A stretch of DNA of 64,000 nucleotides from Ginglymostoma cirratum (taxonomy: Eukaryota). Location: the NCBI GenBank assembly GCA_024137785.1, contig JAHRHZ010000051.1, forward strand, positions 434,001 through 498,000, written 5' to 3'. Positions within the stretch are counted from its first letter, which is position 1; each line of letters starts with the position of its first letter. The notes below the pieces were generated by a model. That model did no database searches, was not told where the DNA came from, and worked only from the letters and a program-made list of their open reading frames with translations. The position numbers and the translations under genes were made by a program. Below, piece after piece: positions 9,791-41,014 of this stretch.

Positions 9791-10469
9791 GGCGGGGGGA
9801 GTGGTTGGGAATGTTTCTTGTTCTCAAATTTCACTTCCACTCTCATCAGAAACATTTATTATCTTAATAGTACAGCCATAAATTCCTGTGGGTGTAAGTT
9901 CAACCTGCTCAACTTTTCCCCATAAAAAAATTATGAAGATAATGTCACATCAGATAGTAAAGCACTTTGGGTGGTGTACTTCCCAATTATGAGGCACAAA
10001 TTATTCCACACAGTCATCTTTCAGTCTTTTCGAATGATTCAAAAACTCTTAGCCTAGGTAACTTAAAAACATCATAGTGAGAGTTGAAAATGTGGCTTCT
10101 TGCTTTGTGCTGAGAATTCCGTTGCCGGAAAATAAATTGATCAAAGTGCATGTTTATGACTGAATTTGTTTCTACAAATGCACTGGCTTATATAAATGAA
10201 TTCTGAACTTCTAGAACTTTAGCAACTAGATATCAAACAACATGCTTATCAAATCCTTATTTTTGGAAGCAAAAAGAATATCAACTGCTGCATGTCACTA
10301 CAAACAGGGAAGGCAAGAACAGCTAACAGGGACTCAGAATATGAAAATGATTCAAGTATCTAATTATCACACAGAGAAGGGAACTACCTAGGTCCACACA
10401 AACGAAGAGATAGGTTTTAAAATTAACTATCAGTGTCAGTCTGTATCAGAAGGATTGGGTAAATTTTAC

Positions 10470-10826
10470 CTGACATCATTTTCAGAATATCTCCTTTGTA
10501 AATCCTCATTTTCCCTTTGTCTTGCCCCTGTCTCTTCCTCACATTCCTCTTGATCACATTCTGCTTCCTTACATTCCTCTCGTTCACATTTCGCTTCCTC
10601 ATATTCCTCTTGCTCACATTCCTCTCGATCACATTCTTCTTCCTTTGGTTTGTCTTCTTCCCCTACTTCCTTATTTACCCCCTTTTCCTCATTTTGGGTT
10701 ATTTCTTCCCTCTCCCCTTCTTTTTCCTTCCCTTCTTCCTTTTCCCTCTGCTCCTCCTCTACCTCTGCCTCTTCCTCCTCCCCTTCTTCCCCTCCCTCTT
10801 TCTTTTCTTCTAATGCTTTTGACCTC
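10470..10826 (-). CDS. RIMS2: Candidate RIMS2 cassette exon, 357 nt, phase 2-2, Glu-rich with EEC repeats
   Basis: Acceptor TGTGACAG|G and donor AG|GTAAAA; length 119 codons; open in the frame set by the upstream exon ending ATC AG; branch point TAACTAAC and polypyrimidine tract upstream. Confidence 0.7.
10534..10640 (-). repeat. 15-bp coding minisatellite, about 7 units (GAG GAA TGT GAN NNA)
   Basis: Encodes EECDR EECEQ EEYEE AKCER EECKE AECDQ EECEE with no frameshifting indel. Confidence 0.9.
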
Positions 10827-10852
10827 CTGTCACAGCATAAAAGTGATGAAGG

Positions 10853-10886
10853 CATGCAAAAAAGAAAAGAATAACGAAGTTAGTTA
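10853..10886 (-). promoter_or_regulatory. Branch point (TAACTAAC, also a QKI-type motif) and RBFOX motif TGCATG upstream of the acidic exon
   Basis: Minus strand TAACTAAC (10886-10879), TTCGTTATTCTTTTCTTTTT, TGCATG (10858-10853); the first AG after the branch point is the acceptor at 10828-10827. Confidence 0.6.
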
Positions 10887-12908: not shown

Positions 12909-13081
12909 CTGATCTTCCTGGTTGTCCGAGGATGCTCGGATTGTACAGACATGTAACTTGTGCTGCTCATTCGAGAAGCGCTGCTCGTCCTTGACACAGC
13001 AGACACATCACTTACATCACTGTCTGATGACTTGTTGGAGATATTGTCTGACCCTCGCTGAGAGTCCCGTCCCAGCCGATG
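12909..13081 (-). CDS. RIMS2: RIMS2 exon (173 nt, phase 0-2): HRLGRDSQRGSDNISNKSSDSDVSDVSAVSRTSSASRMSSTSYMSVQSEHPRTTRKI
   Basis: Matches the recalled RIM2 segment KSSDSDVSDVSAVSRTSSASRFSSTSYMSVQSERP..RKIS (RIM1 has SAISR and FMSEQSE); splice sites TTTTTCTTACAG| and AG|GTGAGA. Confidence 0.95.
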
Positions 13082-18488: not shown

Positions 18489-18833
18489 TGGTGGCATCGT
18501 GACTGGCCATGCAGCCTCACAGTGCCATGGACCCATGTTTGATAGGTGATTGTCTGCGTGGAATTTGCATACTCTCCCTGTGTCTGCATGGGTTTCTACC
18601 GGGTGGTCTGGTTTCTGTTCAGAGTCCAACAACGTGCAGGTTAGGTGGGTTACCCATGCTAAATTGCCCCATAGTGTCCAGGGATGTGCAGCTTAAGTGG
18701 ATTGGCCACAGTAAATGTGGAGTTATGGGGACAGGGGAGGGCGCTGGGGCTGGGTCTGGGTGTGGTGCTCTTCGGAGGCTTGGTGCAGATTTGATATGCC
18801 AAATTACCTCTTTCTGCACTGTAGGGATTCTAT
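18489..18833 (+). mobile_element. HE1-type tRNA-derived V-SINE
   Basis: V-domain gtggaatttgcatactctccctgtgtctgcatgggtttc..ggttaggtgg..ccatgctaaattgccc; CR1-derived tail gtagggattctatg. Confidence 0.8.
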
Positions 18834-18917
18834 GATAAACCAATACTTTTTTTTCAAAAATCTGTACAAAATATTGAAGATATGAAATGTAAAATCTCTA
18901 AATCAACAAGAAGTTCT

Positions 18918-20006
18918 TTCTTGTCCCAAACATCCCAACCTCTTATTTCAAGGACCGCAACTTCCCCACTTCGGTGGTCGAGAATGCTCTCGCCTGCATC
19001 TCTTGCATTTCCCGCACCTCTGCCCTCACATCCCCTCCCCACAACAAAAACAAAGATAGAATCCCCCTTCTCCTCACGTATCACCCCACTAACCTCCGGA
19101 TTCAACGTATCATTCTCCGCCACTTCCGCCACCTGCAATCTGACAATACAACCAAAGACATATTTCCCTCCTCACCCCTATCTGTCTTCTGTAGGGACTG
19201 CTCTTTCCGCAACTCCCTTGTCCACTCCACACTCCCCACTAGCCTCACCTAACCCGGCAACCGCAGGAAGTGCTACACCTGCCCCTACACCTCCCCCACA
19301 TCTCCATCCAAGGAACTAAAAAAAACTTCCACATCAAACAGATGTTCACCTGCACATCCGCTAATGTGGTTTCCTGTATCCTCTGCTTCTGATGTGTCCT
19401 CCTCTACACCGGTGAGACCAAGCAGAGGCTTGGTGACCGCTTTGTAGAGCAACTGCGCTCTGTTCGCGACAAACCACAACACCTTCCAGTCGCGAACCAC
19501 TTCAACTCCCCCTCCCACTCCCTGGGTGATGTGTCCATCCTGGGCCTCCTCCAGTGTCACAATGACGCCACCCAGAAACTGGAGGAGCAGCATCTCATAT
19601 TCTGCCTGGGGAGCCCACAACCCAATGATCTCAATGTGGACTTAACTAGTTTCAAAATTTTCCCACCCCTGGCCTCATCCCATGACCAACCCTCCCTCTC
19701 ATCACTGCCTCCTTGACCTGACACAACTTGTCCATCTTCTCTCCCACCTATCCACCCCTCCCACCTCACGGACCAATCTCCACCACTGCCTACCTGCACT
19801 CACCTATCACCATTCCACCTACCTTCCCCAGCCCCACCCCTCATCTCTATTTATTTCAGAGCTCCCTTCCCCCTCCCCCATTTCTGAAGAAGGGTTCCAA
19901 CCCGAAACATCAGCTTCCCTGCTCCTCTGATGCTGCCAGACCTGCTGTGTTCCTCCAGCTCCACACTGTTATCTCTGACTCCAGCATCTGCAGTTCTCAC
20001 TATCTC
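18918..20006 (+). mobile_element. Penelope-like (Neptune-type) element 3' part: RT-EN linker, decayed GIY-YIG, pLTR
   Basis: KDRIPLLLTYHPTNLRIQRIILRHFRHLQSD, CNRRKCYTCP-like Zn motif, EEQHLIFCLGS.QPN.LNVD; hammerhead-like CTGAAGA..GAAAC at 19884-19911. Confidence 0.9.
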
Positions 20007-32959: not shown

Positions 32960-35900
32960 GCTCATAGTTACCTTGATAGGGGGTTAGACAGTGTCCTTTG
33001 CAAGCAGGGTAGAGAATCTCGCATGGTGTGTTGCCTGCCCGGTGCCAGGGTGTGAGACATCTCTGACCGGCTTGAGAGGATACTAGAGAGGGAGGGGGGA
33101 GGATCCAGTTGTTGCGGTCCATGTAGGTACCAACAACATAGGCAGGACTAGGAAAAAAGACCTGTTTCGGGATTATGAAAAGCTAGGAACAAAATTTAAA
33201 AACAGGTCTTCAAGGGTCATAATCTCTGGATTGCTGCCCGAGCCACGTGCAAATTGGCATAGGGAGGAGACACACATGGCCAGAAGAGTGGTGTGGGAAA
33301 GAGGGTTTCCTTTTCATGGGGCACTGGCATCAGTTCCGAGACAGGAGGGATCTGTACCGCTGGGATGGACTCCACCTGAACAGGGCCGGGTCCAGTGTTC
33401 TGGCGAAAAGGGTAAATAGGGTGGTCAACAGGACTTTAAACTAGTAAGTAGTGGGAAAGGGAGGAGTGAGCATACAGGGAGTATAACAATTAATGTAAGG
33501 CAAAGCAGCAGGTTAGCAGGTGATGAGGAAGCTTCAACTCCATTGAAAATTAGGAAAAAAGTTAAACGGAAAGGGAACTCGAGAGATGTTAGTAATGGAG
33601 GTGATAGGACCCAACAAGAAGGTGCAAAAACTGGCATAAGGGCACTTTATCTGAATACTCGGAGCATTCAAAACAAGGTGGATGAGTTGACAACACAAAT
33701 CATGGCAAATGGGTATGATTTACTGGCCATTACAGAGACATGGTTGCAGGATGGTCATGACTGGGAGTTAAATATCCAGGGGTATCAAACTGTTCAGAAG
33801 GACAGACAGGAAGGTAAGGGTGGTGGTGTCGCTATGATTTTTAAAGATGATATCAGGACGGTAGTGAGAGATGATAATAGGTTCTACTGAACAAAAGGTT
33901 GAATCCATTTGGGTAGAAATTAGAAATAGCAGGGAGAAGAAGGCACTGATAGGTGTGGTCTATAGGCCACCAAATAATGACATCGTGGTGGGGCCGGCAA
34001 TAAACACAGAAATAGCTAATGTATGTAAAAATGGTACAGCAATTATCATAGGGGATTTTAATCTACATATCGATTGGTCAAACCAGGTCGGTCATGGCAG
34101 CCTTGAGGAGGGGTTCATAGAATGCATCTGCGATAATTTCCTTGAACAATATGTAATGGAACCTATGAGGGAGCAAGCTATCCGAGATCTAGTCCTGTGT
34201 AATGAGACGGAAATAATTAATGATCTCACGGTTAGGGACCACAATATGGTCGAATTTAAAATACAGATGAAGCGTGAGAAGGTTAAATCCAGTGCCAATG
34301 TCCTGTGTTTAAACAAAGGAGACTACGATGGGATGAGGGAGGAGTTAGGTAAGGTAAAATGGGAACAAAAACTTTATGGTGGGTCAAGTGAGGAACAGTG
34401 GAGGACTTTCAAAACGATTTTTCACAGTGCTCAGCAGAAGTATATTCCAGTGATAAGGAAGAGCTGTAAGAAAAGAAAAAGTCAGCCATGGATGTCTAAG
34501 GAAATAGAGGAAAGTATCAGATTAAAAAAAAATACATGCAAGAAGCAAAGATTAGTGGGAAACTAGTAGACTGGGAAATCTTTAAAGGCCAACAGAAAGC
34601 CACAAAAAAAGTTATAAAGAAAAATAAGACAGATAATGAGAGTAAACTAGCTCAAAATATAAGAACAGGCAGCAAATGTTTCTATAAATATGTAAATCAT
34701 AAAAGTGTGGTGAAGGTAACATTGGTCCTTTAGAGATGAAAAGACCAATTTAATAACTGAGAATGAGGAAATGGCCAAGGCATCAAACAGTTAATTTGTG
34801 TCAGTCTACACAGTGGAAGATACAAATAACATGCCGAAAACTGATGGCAAGAAGGTTATAGCAGGTGAGGACCTAGAAACTATCATTATCACGAAGGAGG
34901 CAGTGCTGGGCAAGCTAATGGGGTTAAAGGTAGACAAGTCTCCTGGCCCTGATGAAATGCATCCCAGGGTACTCAAAGAGGTGATGGGGGAAATGGCAAA
35001 TGCACTAGTAATTATTTACCAACATTCACTGGACTCTGGGGTGGTTCCCGCAGATTGGAAAACAGCCAATGTGACGCCACTGTTTAAAAAGGGAAGTAGA
35101 CAAAAAGCAGGTAACTATAGGCCAGTTAGCTTAACTTCGGTAGTGGGGAAAATGCTTGAATCTATCATTAAGGAAGAAATAGCAAGACATCTGGATATAA
35201 ATTCTCCCATTGGGAACACCCAACATGGGTTCATGAAGGGTAGGTCATGTTTAACTAATTTGGTGGAATTCTTTGAGGACATTATTTGCATGGTGGACAA
35301 TGGGGATCCTGTGGATGTGGTGTATCTGGATTTCCAGAAGGCATTTGACAAGGTGCCACACCAAAGGCTGCTACACAAGATAAAGTTGCACAATATTACA
35401 GGTAATGTATTGGCATGGATAGAGGATTGGTTGACGAGTAGAAAGCAAAGAGTAGGGGTAAATGGGTGTTTTTCTGGTTGGCGGTCAGTGGCTAGTGGTG
35501 TGCCTCAGGGATCAGTGTTGGGACCGCAATTGTTTACAATTTACATAGATGATTTGGAGTTGGGGACTAAGTGTGGTGTGTCAAAATTTGCAGATGACCC
35601 CAAGGTGAGTGGTAGAGCAAAATGTGCAGAAGACACTGAAGGTCGCCAGAGGGATATAGATAGTCTAAGTGAGTGGGCAAAGGTCTGGCAGATGGAGTAC
35701 AATGTTGATAAGTGTGAGGTCATCCATTTTGGTAGGAATAACAGCAAAATGGACCATGTTTTAATTGGTAAAAAAATTGCAGCACACTGTTGTGCTGCGG
35801 GACTTGGGTGTCCTTGTGCATGAATCACTGAAAGTAGGATTGCAGGTGCAGCAGGTAATTAAAAAGGCAAATGGAATTTTGTCTGTCATTGCTAGAGGGA

Positions 35901-36511
35901 TGGAGTTTAAAAACAGGGTGGCTATGCTGCAGCTGTATAGGGTCCTGGTGAGGCCACGCCTGGAGTACTGTGTGCAGTTTTGGTCTCCTTACTTGACAGG
36001 GGATATACTAGCACTGGAGGGGTTGCAGAGGAGATTCACTCAGTTGATTCCAGAGTTGAGAGGGTTGGATTATGAGGAGAGGCTGAGTAGGCTGGGACTA
36101 TACGCAGTGGAATTCAGAAGAATGAGGGGAGATCTTATAGAAACGTATGAGATTATGAAGGGAATAGAGAAGGTGGAGGCAGGGAGGTTGTTTCCACTAG
36201 CAGGTGAAACTAGGAACGGGGGCATAACCTCAAAATAAAGGGAAGCAGATGTCGGACTGAGGTCAGGAGGAACTTCTTCACCCAAAGGGTTGTAAATCTG
36301 TGGAATTCCCTGCCCAGTGAAGCGGTTGAAGCTACCTCGCTGAATGTGTTTAAGGCAAGGCTAGATAAATTTTTGAACAGTAAAGGAATTAAAGGTTATG
36401 GTGAGTGGGTGGGTAAGTGGAGCTGAGTCTCAAAAAGATCAGCCATGATCTTATTGAATGGTGGGGCAGGCTCGAGGGGCCGGATGGCCTACTCCTGCTC
36501 CTAGTTCTTAT
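32960..36511 (+). mobile_element. 5'-truncated CR1 (HER1-like) LINE: ORF1 SGNH-esterase end plus frameshifted ORF2 (APE endonuclease and RT)
   Basis: ORF1 VHVGTNN..DGLHLN; ORF2 LYLNTRSI..AITETW, GVVYRPP, GDFN, NYRPVSLTS, YLDFQKAFDKVPH, GVPQGSVLGP, FADD; several frameshifts. Confidence 0.95.
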
Positions 36512-36824
36512 TACACTCTTCAGATGGACTCTATTTCATTCTCCTGGCTTCTCTGTCACTACCACATCTGTTCTAACGATACCACCTTTCACACTAGCAC
36601 TTTTAATATGTCTTATATTGTCCTCAACTATGATTGACCAGGTTCTCCCGCACGTCTGTTCCGTTGTCCCAATTCTTCATTCTTCTATGATCCTCATCTT
36701 CTACCTGAACAGCTTCCATATTGAGCTGACTGTTCTACATTATTTCTATCTCCAATAGCATAGGCCAACACCAAACATATCTGTCCTCCATCGCCTCTCT
36801 TTCAGCACTATAAATGAACTGTTC

Positions 36825-39800
36825 ATAGAACATAGAACAGTACAGGCCCTTCGGCCCACGATGTTGTGCCAACCGATTATCCTACTAAGATCAACCTACC
36901 CTGCATACCCTACATTTTTCTATCCTCCATGTGCCTATCCAAAAGTTGCTTAAATGTCTCTAAAGTATCTGACTCCACTACCACTGCTGACAGTGCATTC
37001 CACACGCCCACCACACTCTGTGTAAAGAACCTACCTCTGATATCTCCCCTATACTTCCCTCCAATCACCTTAAAATTATGCCCCCTCATAATAGTCATTT
37101 CCACCCTGGGAAAAAGTCTCTGACTATCCAGTCTATCTATACCTCTCATCATCTTGTACATCTTTATCAAGTCACCTCTCATCCTTCTTCGCTCCAATGA
37201 GAAAAGCCCGAGCTCCCTCAACTTTTCCTCATAAGACTTGCCCTCCAGTCCAGGCAGCATCCTGGTAAATCTCCTCTGCACCCTCTCTAAAGCTTCCACA
37301 TCTTTGTTAGAACTGAACACAATATTTCAAGTGTGGTCTAACCAGGGTTTTATAGATCTGCAGCATAACCTCACAGCTCTTAAACTCAATTGCCCTGCCA
37401 ATGAAAGCCAACACACCATACACCTTCCTTATAACCCTATCAACTTGGGTAACAACTTCGACAGATCGACAGATGTGGACCCCAAGATCCCTCTGTTTCT
37501 CCACACTGCTGAGAATCTGCCATTAACCCTGTATTCTGCATTCAAATTTGACCTTCCAAAGTGAATCACTTCATACTTTTCTGGGGTGAATTCCATCTGC
37601 CATTTCTTTGCCCAGCTCTGCATCCTGTCAATGACCCGTTGCAACTTACAACAGCCCTCCACGCTGACCACAACTCCACTAACCTTCATGTCATCAGCAA
37701 ACATACTAACCCACCTTTCCACTTCCTCATCCAAGTCATTTATAAAGATCACAAAGAGCAGAGGCCCCAGAACAGATCCCTGTGGAACACCAAAGGTCAT
37801 CGAGCTCCAGGCTGGATACTTTCCATCTACTACCGCCCTCTGTCTTCTATTGGACAGCCAGTATTGTATCCAGACAGACAAATTTCCCTGAATCCCATGC
37901 CTCCTTACTTTCTGAATGAGCCTACCATGTGGAACCTTAACAAATGCCTTGCTAACATCCATATACAGCACATCCATTGCTCTACCTTCATCAATGTGTT
38001 TTGTCAAATCCTCAAAGAAGTCAATAAAGCTTGTGAGGCATGACCTGCCACTCACAAAGCCATGCTGACTATTTCTAATCAAACTGTCATAAATACTATC
38101 TCTCAGAATCCTCTCCAATAATTTGTCCACCACAGAAGTAAAACTGACCAGTCTGTAATTTCCAGGATTATCCCTCTTCTCTTTCTTGAACAAGGGAATA
38201 ACATTTGCCACCCTCCAATCTTCTGGTACTACTCCAGTGGACAGTGAGGACACAAAGTGGCAGCAATCTCTTCCCTCACTTCCTGTAGAAACCTTGGGTA
38301 TATCCCTTTTGGCCCAGGGGATTATCTATCCTCATGTTTTTCAAAATTTTTCACAGATCCTCCTTCCTAACATGAACCTGTTCGAGCATATCTGCCTGTT
38401 TCATGCTGTCCTCACAAATGTTAAGGTCCCTCTCACTGGTGAATACTGAAGCAAAGTATTCATTAAGGACCTTCCCAACGTCCTATGACTCTGCACACAA
38501 GTTCCCTCCGTTATCGCTGATCGGCCCTACCCTCACTCTGGCCATCCTCTTTTTCCTCACATAAGCATAGAAAGCCTTGGGGTTTTCCTTTATCCTACCT
38601 GTCAAGGTTTCTTCAGTGATAATCGGTACTGCAGATGCTGGAGAATCCGAGATAACAAGGTTATCTCCACATCTCCACACCTCCACACCCCACACCTCCT
38701 CCCTCACCACAATCCCAGGCCCCAAGAAGACTTTCCACATCAAGCAGATGTTCACCTGCACATCTGCCAATGTGGTATACTGCATCCGCTGTACCCGTTG
38801 TGGCTTCCTCTACATCGGGGAAACCAGGCGGAGGCTTGGGGACCGCTTTGCAGAACACCTGCGCTCAGTTCGCAACAAACAACTGCACCTCCCAGTCGTG
38901 AACCATTTCAACTCCCCCTCCCATTCCTCAGATGACATGTCCATCCTGGGCCTCCTGCAGTGCCACAATGATGCCACCCGAAGGCTGCAGGAACAGCAAA
39001 TCATATTCAGCCTGGGAACCCTGCAGCCCAACGGTATCACTGTGGATTTCACAAGCTTCAAAATCTCCCCTCCCCCAACCAGCATCCCAAAACCAGCCCA
39101 GCTCATCCCCGCTTCCCTAACCTGTCCTTCCTCTCTCCTATCCCCTCCTCCCACCTCAAGCCGCACCCCCATCTCCTATCTACTAACCTCATCCCGCCCT
39201 CTTGACCTGTCCGTCCTCCCTGGACTGACCTATCTCCTCCCTACCTCCCCACCTACACTCACCTTTACTGGCTCCATCCCCGCGTCTTTGACTTGTCTGT
39301 CTCCTCTCCACCTATCCTCTCCTCTATCCATCTTCTATCCGCCTCCCCCCTCTCCCTATTTATTTCAGAACCCTCTTCCCCTCCCCCATTTCTGATGAAG
39401 GGTCTAGGCCCGAAACATCAAGCTTTCCTGCTCCTACGATGCTGCTTGGCCTGCTGTGTTCATCCAGCTCCACACCTTATTATCAAGGTTTCTTCAGTTC
39501 CTTCCTGGCTACCTTGTAGCTCTCTAGAGCCCTGTCCGATCCTTGCTTCCTCAACCTTAAGTAAACTTCCTTCTTCTTCTTGACTAGATGTTCCACATGC
39601 CTGGTCATCCACTGTTCCTTCACCTTACCATCCTTTCCTTGCCTTGCCTCAGTGGGACAAACCTGTTCAGTACTTGTAGCAACTGCTCCCTAAACAACCT
39701 CCACATTTCTATCGTGCATTTTCCCAGAGAACATCTGATCCCAATTGGTGCTCCTTAGTTCTTGCCTAATAGCATTGTAATTCCCCCTCCCCCAATTAAA

Positions 39801-40714: not shown

Positions 40715-40875
40715 ATTTAAATAAAATTGCAACTTACATTTAAGTTAAAAAATCCACAATGTGGATCCACATTTAAATAAAATTGCAACTTACATTTAAG
40801 TTAAAAAATCCACATTGTGGATCCACATTTAAATAAAATTTCAACTTACATTTAAGTTAAAAAATCCACATTGTG
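40715..40875. repeat. 56-bp tandem repeat, about 2.9 copies, with internal palindromes
   Basis: atttaaataaaatt(g/t)caacttacatttaagttaaaaaatccaca(a/t)tgtggatccac starting at 40715, 40771 and 40827. Confidence 0.95.
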
Positions 40876-40907: not shown

Positions 40908-41014
40908 CTTGGAATGGTACTCCTGTTCCAACCTTGAATCTGATGTTGCAACCTGTTTGTACTTGCTTATTTTCATTTTCATTTGGCGAGTCCTCTCTTC
41001 CACATCCATTGCAC
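40908..41014 (-). CDS. RIMS2: RIMS2 exon (107 nt, phase 1-0): (G/S)AMDVEERTRQMKMKISKYKQVATSDSRLEQEYHSK
   Basis: Matches recalled RIM2 AMDIEERNRQMK.NKYKQVAGSDPRLEQDYHSK; splice sites CTCTGTCCATAG| and AAG|GTTAGT; phase fits exon 12909-13081. Not shown in the ORF track. Confidence 0.95.

Follow-up and report, generated by a model that had tools for sequence, protein, structure and literature searches.

RPGR-ORF15 carries a photoreceptor-associated, Glu-rich segment of low complexity that arises by alternative splicing. GARP2/CNGB1, in the accounts available of it, is likewise photoreceptor-associated, of low complexity, rich in Glu and a product of alternative splicing. The acidic insert of RIM2 described here resembles both, and only a resemblance is meant: their place of action is the outer segment or cilium, whereas the RIM2 insert belongs to a presynaptic scaffold, and no homology is implied. 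Photoreceptor variants of RIM2 were reportedly the subject of a study by Lohner et al. in 2017, which may describe this very insert.

RIM2 is located at the ribbon's base together with Cav1.4 (PMC11536687), and RIM2/Cav1.4 clusters at this position depend on illumination, as stated in the available portion of PMC7136232. RIM is also described as forming condensates with RIM-BP, with its C2B domain binding channel beta subunits (PMC10169678, available sections). Complete loss of RIM2 is described as having only mild effects on the mouse retina (PMC11536687); loss of RIMS2 leads to a congenital cone-rod synaptic disorder (PMC7273530).

The closest described exon is found in mouse Rims2. Murphy et al. 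2016 (PMC4991804, S3 Table) place a 252-nt exon at chr15:39586534-39586785 (mm10; the start is also given as 39586533), between exons of 173 nt and 242 nt, with junction counts for both its inclusion and its skipping. Its PSI in the same source is 0.77-0.81 in wild-type retina versus 0.35-0.41 in the photoreceptor-less Aipl1-/- retina (FDR 0). Since a PSI near 0.39 persists without photoreceptors, the 252-nt exon is not rod-only within the retina, and some other retinal cells would include it as well. In Supplementary Data 1 of ASCOT, which covers cell-type-specific exons (PMC6952364), the PSI of the same exon reaches 86.5 for rods and at most 9.3 for any other cell type or tissue: it is 5.6 for DRG, 1.05 for Atoh1+ cochlear hair cells, 0.04 for islet and 0 for brain as well as for those cortical, hippocampal, motor and olfactory neurons that have data. 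Among the six ASCOT files searched, Rims2 appeared in the mouse table only.

The acidic cassette exon and its counterparts

The window, by which we mean the whole stretch of 64,000 nucleotides from Ginglymostoma cirratum that was analysed, is rich in repeats and contains several RIMS2 exons on its minus strand:

10470..10826, minus strand: 357-nt RIMS2 cassette exon for the acidic insert, phase 2/2, adding 119 aa; orthologous inserts occur in relatives
12909..13081, minus strand: upstream RIMS2 exon (KSSDSDVS), 173 nt, end phase 2, equal in length to the mouse exon that precedes the 252-nt exon
40908..41014, minus strand: 107-nt RIMS2 exon (AMDVEE...), which corresponds to an exon of 101 nt and the same phase in mouse
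55259-55224, minus strand: small RIMS2 alternative exon, 36 nt
56034/56031-56002, minus strand: small alternative exon of RIMS2, 33 or 30 nt according to which of two tandem acceptors is used, like the 33/30-nt exon of mouse
57517/57513-57482, minus strand: small RIMS2 alternative exon, 36 or 32 nt

The acidic exon (10826>10470) is bordered by ...GACAG upstream and GTAAAA downstream, a canonical AG/GT pair, and is separated from the upstream exon by an intron of 2,082 nt (12909>10826). These borders confirm an earlier sequence-only reading, which had proposed a stop-free 357-nt AG/GT segment 2.1 kb past the KSSDSDVS exon. When the 173-nt and 357-nt exons are joined, the product contains no stop and ends in phase 2; canonical splice sites, a preserved frame and the absence of stops are features expected of a cassette exon. 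Translation reproduced the proposed composition, with 49 Glu and 6 Cys over 118 whole codons and a net gain of 119 aa. The encoded segment is 45% acidic and of low complexity, and its net charge of -32 bears out the strongly acidic stretch that had been proposed ahead of C2B. Searches of Pfam and PDB with the exon translation gave no match.

The purine fraction of the exon is 0.84, in line with the purine-rich body noted earlier and the highest on the minus strand of the window, where other 357-nt stretches have a median of 0.50 and reach at most 0.77. When the exon was shuffled 20,000 times by mononucleotide, just 0.08% of the products were stop-free in its frame, a rarity that is overstated, as this lenient control ignores GAA-type periodicity. 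Tandem acceptors of the NAGNAG type at 10826 and 10823 yield exons of 357 or 354 nt, both of them in frame. Several reptile models have an insert that begins a few residues later, which is consistent with nearby alternative acceptors. Within the 64-kb window no exon was found downstream of 10470, and the next RIMS2 exon lies beyond it. Assignment of the gene as RIMS2 is supported by the upstream exon, with 93-100% identity to chondrichthyan RIMS2 models; in addition, the exon-bearing protein of the whale shark contains RIM2a_ZnF, PDZ and two C2 domains. A few short isoforms carry the automatic names RIMS1 or RIMS4 and share contigs and sequence with the RIMS2 models.

To describe the exon among cartilaginous fishes, we used 149 junction-spanning proteins of 20 species, all of them computed gene models rather than reads, which came from a search with the exon translation, from cluster members and from a search with the upstream exon; nine members without the region were excluded. 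The exon is present in 40 of the 149 proteins and in nine of the 20 species, the chimaera Callorhinchus among them, while 107 models skip it and two have another insert at this place. Exon-included and exon-skipped models coexist in six of the 20 species, as the proposal of a RIMS2 cassette exon had implied, and 11 species had no exon-bearing model in this sample. Over aligned columns, the window exon is 95% identical to that of the whale shark and 90% identical to that of the bamboo shark. The same exon with identical ends is found in XP_048451759.1 (Rhincodon typus), relative to which the window copy is 9 aa shorter via two in-frame gaps, and in XP_043544358.1 (Chiloscyllium plagiosum), XP_038665923.1 (Scyliorhinus canicula) and XP_055490876.1 (Leucoraja erinacea). 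Chondrichthyan inserts combine conserved ends with a variable middle; in length they span 92-153 aa, with the frame kept in every case. Two models of the electric ray Narcine bancroftii (P0078 and P0133) have a non-acidic insert of 46 aa at the same junction, which may be mis-modelled or a lineage-specific exon.

The search with the upstream exon returned chondrichthyan proteins for 119 of the best 120 matches listed and so does not address bony vertebrates, which were reached with the chimaera region as query. This query, the chimaera insert with short flanks, gave 955 matches among 8,000 candidates, and the best 120 of the 955 were examined. In each of the 119 non-self matches listed, an acidic insert occupies this same junction; together they represent 48 bony-vertebrate taxa: two sturgeons, two bichirs, two turtles, one crocodile, six squamates and 35 mammals. 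Ranking by the chimaera insert favours insert-bearing proteins, and the result therefore shows presence, not frequency; teleost, bird, amphibian, mouse and human sequences did not appear among these best 120 of 955. The bony-vertebrate inserts measure 81-97 aa, with 84 aa (equal to 252 nt) in 28 of the 35 mammalian taxa listed, and the rodents among them (squirrels, marmots, gopher) have the 84 aa form.

The last 12 residues of each insert were compared with the last 12 of the window insert, taking the best window in each of 1,000 composition-preserving shuffles of that insert; in 48 of 48 taxa the real score was reached by 0 of the 1,000 shuffles. Over aligned columns, the window insert is 42-62% identical to those of baboon, squirrel, turtle and sturgeon. 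At the level of sequence, these comparisons show that the shark and bony-vertebrate inserts are homologous beyond their composition and that, from chimaera to mammals, they occupy one and the same junction. The sequence-only reading had assumed that mammalian RIM2 runs RKIS-VFTSK without such an exon. With a same-junction insert modelled in the 35 mammalian taxa listed, that premise is wrong, and the commonly cited mammalian brain isoforms would be those that skip the exon.

The mouse exon series of 33/30, 101, 173, 252 and 242 nt, as tabulated in PMC4991804, is collinear with the 33/30, 107, 173 and 357 nt of the window, and the phases agree; an 81-residue span of the downstream exon fits the mouse 242 nt. 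The match is one of gene, exon size, order and phase rather than of sequence, and on these grounds the mouse 252-nt exon is very probably this exon. It lies in the same gene at the same place, its length is a multiple of three and it equals in size the 84 aa insert of 28 of the 35 mammalian taxa. The window exon differs in its 357 nt and Glu/Cys repeat, in a net charge of -32 against about -10, and in an upstream intron of 2,082 nt against 771 nt. We consider it highly likely that the window exon is the shark orthologue of an ancient RIMS2 cassette exon common to jawed vertebrates at large. The likely counterpart in mouse is included in rods and some other retinal cells and left out of the transcript in islets, hair cells and the neurons of the brain.

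The exon is already known, through public annotations across jawed vertebrates and, for its likely mouse counterpart, through two splicing catalogues. Broad annotation across vertebrates had been named in advance as the finding that would remove the novelty of the exon, and it is what we found. In the literature searched, which comprised few subscription papers and none of the original ones on RIM gene structure, we found no paper on the exon's protein product or on its conservation to sharks. The RetLONG sheets of Ciampi et al. 2022 (PMC9303857) include RIMS2 for chicken only, not for human or mouse, with a 236-nt exon at PSI 45 in retina and 0.27 in neural samples. This chicken exon was not counted as an orthologue, because 236 is not divisible by three and the comparison included no bird sequence.

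The insert in the C2A-C2B linker

The insert falls in the linker between C2A and C2B, 158-166 aa ahead of C2B, and is flanked by basic segments. Its inclusion shifts the net charge of the linker from +5 to -36 in the whale shark and from +25 to +17 in the baboon; the inserts of mammals are no more than mildly acidic, with a net charge of -2 to -14, and charge reversal is therefore not general. Across all inserts, length drifts from 81 to 153 aa, net charge from -2 to -48 and the number of Cys from 0 to 8, while the ends are conserved. The C-terminal end contains the following feature:

10472..10507, minus strand: conserved C-terminal motif EDLQRRYSENDV, a putative basophilic kinase-like site

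The consensus of PKA is RRxS, and that of the CaMK group is hydrophobic-x-R-x-x-S. From chimaera to mammals, the E and the Q of the motif are present in 58 of 58 taxa and the S in 57 of 58; the pattern [LMI]x[RK]xxS occurs in 56 of the 58 and RRxS in 46, all of which are inflated values, as the taxa were ranked by their likeness to the chimaera insert. In the literature searched, we found no report of in vivo phosphorylation of the motif serine.

In our best reading, the exon adds a photoreceptor-enriched acidic spacer with a short regulatory motif to the C2A-C2B linker of RIM2. The insert would be disordered and acidic, a spacer whose length is unconstrained; it would make the net charge of the basic linker lower and display one conserved short motif before C2B, either a basophilic kinase site or a docking site. 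The motif may then tune the clustering of RIM2 and the holding of Cav1.4 at the ribbon base for tonic release. As a mechanism, the tuning of RIM2 clustering and Cav1.4 coupling by an acidic spacer with a kinase or docking motif is the one we favour, while giving it somewhat less than an even chance. A more specific form of this proposal, which we put forward tentatively and consider rather doubtful, is a phospho-switch encoded by this RIM2 exon from chimaera and shark to mammal, with a kinase-type motif on an acidic tether whose light- or cAMP-dependent phosphorylation tunes RIM2/Cav1.4 clustering at ribbons. In elasmobranchs, the tether of such a switch would be amplified, coupled to a shorter acceptor and possibly used in electroreceptor ribbons too.

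The freely varying middle of the insert (81-153 aa, net charge -2 to -48, 0-8 Cys) would suit another view, in which the photoreceptor splicing programme tolerates the exon as an in-frame passenger and the insert has no specific role beyond keeping the frame. The lack of a Pfam or PDB match and of any functional study in the literature searched is consistent with such a passenger, and part of the retention of the motif could reflect a splice-signal constraint near the donor. Nevertheless, without selection it is difficult to account for the retention of E and Q in 58 of 58 taxa and of S in 57 of 58, and we regard the passenger explanation as unlikely.

The spacer with its proposed regulatory motif offers a testable lead, namely a photoreceptor isoform of a disease gene with a little-studied insert whose sole conserved part is a 12-residue kinase-like motif. 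The comparison of shark with mammal singles out this motif and marks length, charge and cysteines as dispensable, which guides the choice of mutations.

Probable photoreceptor inclusion and candidate splicing signals

Photoreceptors are described as lacking RBFOX and NOVA and as using Musashi on downstream UAG clusters (PMC4991804, PMC6952364 and PMC10987577, in the available parts). The introns on either side of the window exon contain the following elements:

10827..10885, minus strand: 3' splice region with a CTAAC branch-point match, a pyrimidine tract, TGCATG at -32, two YCAY at -23 and -20, the AG acceptor and a NAG 3 nt downstream
10170..10469, minus strand: donor GT and proximal downstream intron, with nine UAG in 300 nt and three (A/G)U1-3AGU Musashi-type sites

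The CTAAC match places the branch-point A at -54 (10880), in agreement with the branch point noted earlier for this exon. The stretch from -84 to -3 is free of AG, and pyrimidines make up a fraction of 0.74 at -50..-4. Downstream, the nine UAG in 300 nt compare with 4.0 expected. Four motif tests were made on tiles of the window, and their fractions are uncorrected: the three Musashi-type sites in the 200 nt downstream are reached by 1.1% of tiles, the Rbfox-type TGCATG at -32 by 1.7%, and the six plain UAG in 200 nt by 7.8%, which is marginal, while YCAY at 22.7% is not enriched. The window exon is like photoreceptor-enriched, Musashi-activated exons in its downstream UAG sites, its upstream UGCAUG, its synaptic gene and its rod-enriched mouse counterpart, and its motif layout, as read from the letters, fits the photoreceptor splicing code. 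We judge it evenly balanced whether inclusion follows this code, in which Musashi would activate from the UAGs downstream and Rbfox/Nova would, in ordinary neurons, repress from the upstream side. The 252-nt exon is not among the six Rims2 rows in the down, up and unchanged sets of the Msi1/Msi2 knockout (PMC9509328, available tables), and Rims2 is absent from the four supplements of PMC13175383 that were searched.

By analogy with mouse, the shark exon is probably photoreceptor-enriched as well. The sequence-only reading had suggested ribbon synapses of the retina as a site of use, and the tabulated mouse values fit this guess (PSI 86.5 in rods; 0.79 versus 0.39 without photoreceptors). A different possibility is that sharks use the exon less in photoreceptors than elsewhere, either chiefly in electroreceptors or hair cells or in neurons at large. 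Ampullary organs and neuromasts of paddlefish express Rims2, a result at gene level in the portion available of PMC5429088; exon inclusion survives in the photoreceptor-less mouse retina, as tabulated; and low Rbfox/Nova is described as common to sensory cells (PMC10987577, in part). However, the mouse catalogue gives about 1% in hair cells and 0 in olfactory neurons and brain, and the exon is retained in amniotes, which have no ampullary organs. The value for Atoh1+ cochlear hair cells (PSI 1.05; PMC6952364, Supplementary Data 1) also speaks against the use in hair cells that had been suggested, and we hold predominant use outside photoreceptors to be improbable.

Elasmobranch repeat, acceptor choice and neighbouring features

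One part of the exon is confined to elasmobranchs:

10532..10641, minus strand: 15-nt tandem repeat, 7.3 copies, encoding a Glu/Cys pentapeptide block; elasmobranchs only, absent from chimaera and bony vertebrates

This repeat lengthens the elasmobranch exon to 119-153 aa. The block has 6-8 Cys in sharks and skates (the window and six species), 1-2 in stingrays and none in the chimaera. Evenly spaced cysteines in an acidic context, 6-8 of them in the window and six shark or skate species, could suggest a shark-specific module that binds metal or Ca2+. Stingrays, however, retain the long acidic exon with just 1-2 Cys and the chimaera has 0, copy number differs among close relatives, and the block sits in a 15-nt DNA tandem repeat, all of which makes a binding module very unlikely. 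We take the Glu/Cys repeat instead to have expanded in frame within elasmobranchs, none of its cysteines being required. An origin of the shark Cys repeat as an outgrowth of the single Cys of bony vertebrates was rejected, as the alignment puts that Cys upstream of the repeat.

Both junctions of the exon had been proposed to lie in phase 2 and to lead into S/VFTSK. The phase stands, and the partner does not: the short acceptor S-KQM is joined in 39 of 39 exon-bearing elasmobranch models (eight species). The longer S-VF form, whose acceptor lies 24 nt upstream, is used in 99 of the 107 exon-skipping chondrichthyan models, and exon and longer S-VF form occur together in the chimaera model and in 47 of 48 bony taxa among the matches listed. 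It is possible that exon inclusion in sharks and rays is coupled to the shorter downstream acceptor; the counts come from isoform models (P0002-P0159) that are not independent inside one species, and the acceptor itself lies outside the window.

The search with the exon translation found ten proteins, all modelled at the RIMS2 locus and belonging to bamboo shark, catshark and skate, and one match among 50% representatives; low complexity accounts for the restriction of this exon-alone query to sharks and skates, which is no evidence for lineage specificity. The idea of a new or chondrichthyan-specific exon, absent from mammals, could draw on those ten matches and one match and on the longer window version (119 aa) with its elasmobranch-limited repeat, but it is refuted by the junction, phase logic and termini common to the 48 bony-vertebrate taxa listed, 35 of them mammals, and by the 42-62% identity reported above. 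The lineage specificity proposed earlier is not supported, the same insert being found in mammals, turtles, crocodile, squamates, sturgeons and bichirs.

The three small exons of the window (36/32, 33/30 and 36 nt) are part of a second acidic cassette cluster in the shark models. Chicken retina-specific RIMS2 exons of 51, 45 and 90 nt, listed upstream of the 236-nt one in the available sheets of PMC9303857, may be counterparts of these small exons. In two short catshark isoforms (P0004 and P0005), 56034-56002 and 55257-55224 (minus strand) are read in another frame and give an alternative N-terminus. The catshark models suggest internal starts that produce short, exon-bearing C2B proteins of 530-670 aa.

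The remaining features are repeats and a gap. Fragmented open reading frames on both strands of a RIMS2 intron at 33400-38450 resemble endonuclease and reverse transcriptase, and we take them to be of non-LTR retrotransposon type; more repeat fragments lie near 650-1750, 18800-19700 and 38500-39400. An assembly gap of 100 N at 912-1011 falls in the intron downstream of the acidic exon, and a 56-nt tandem repeat at 40715-40875 (2.9 copies, 98% match) lies directly downstream of the 107-nt RIMS2 exon.
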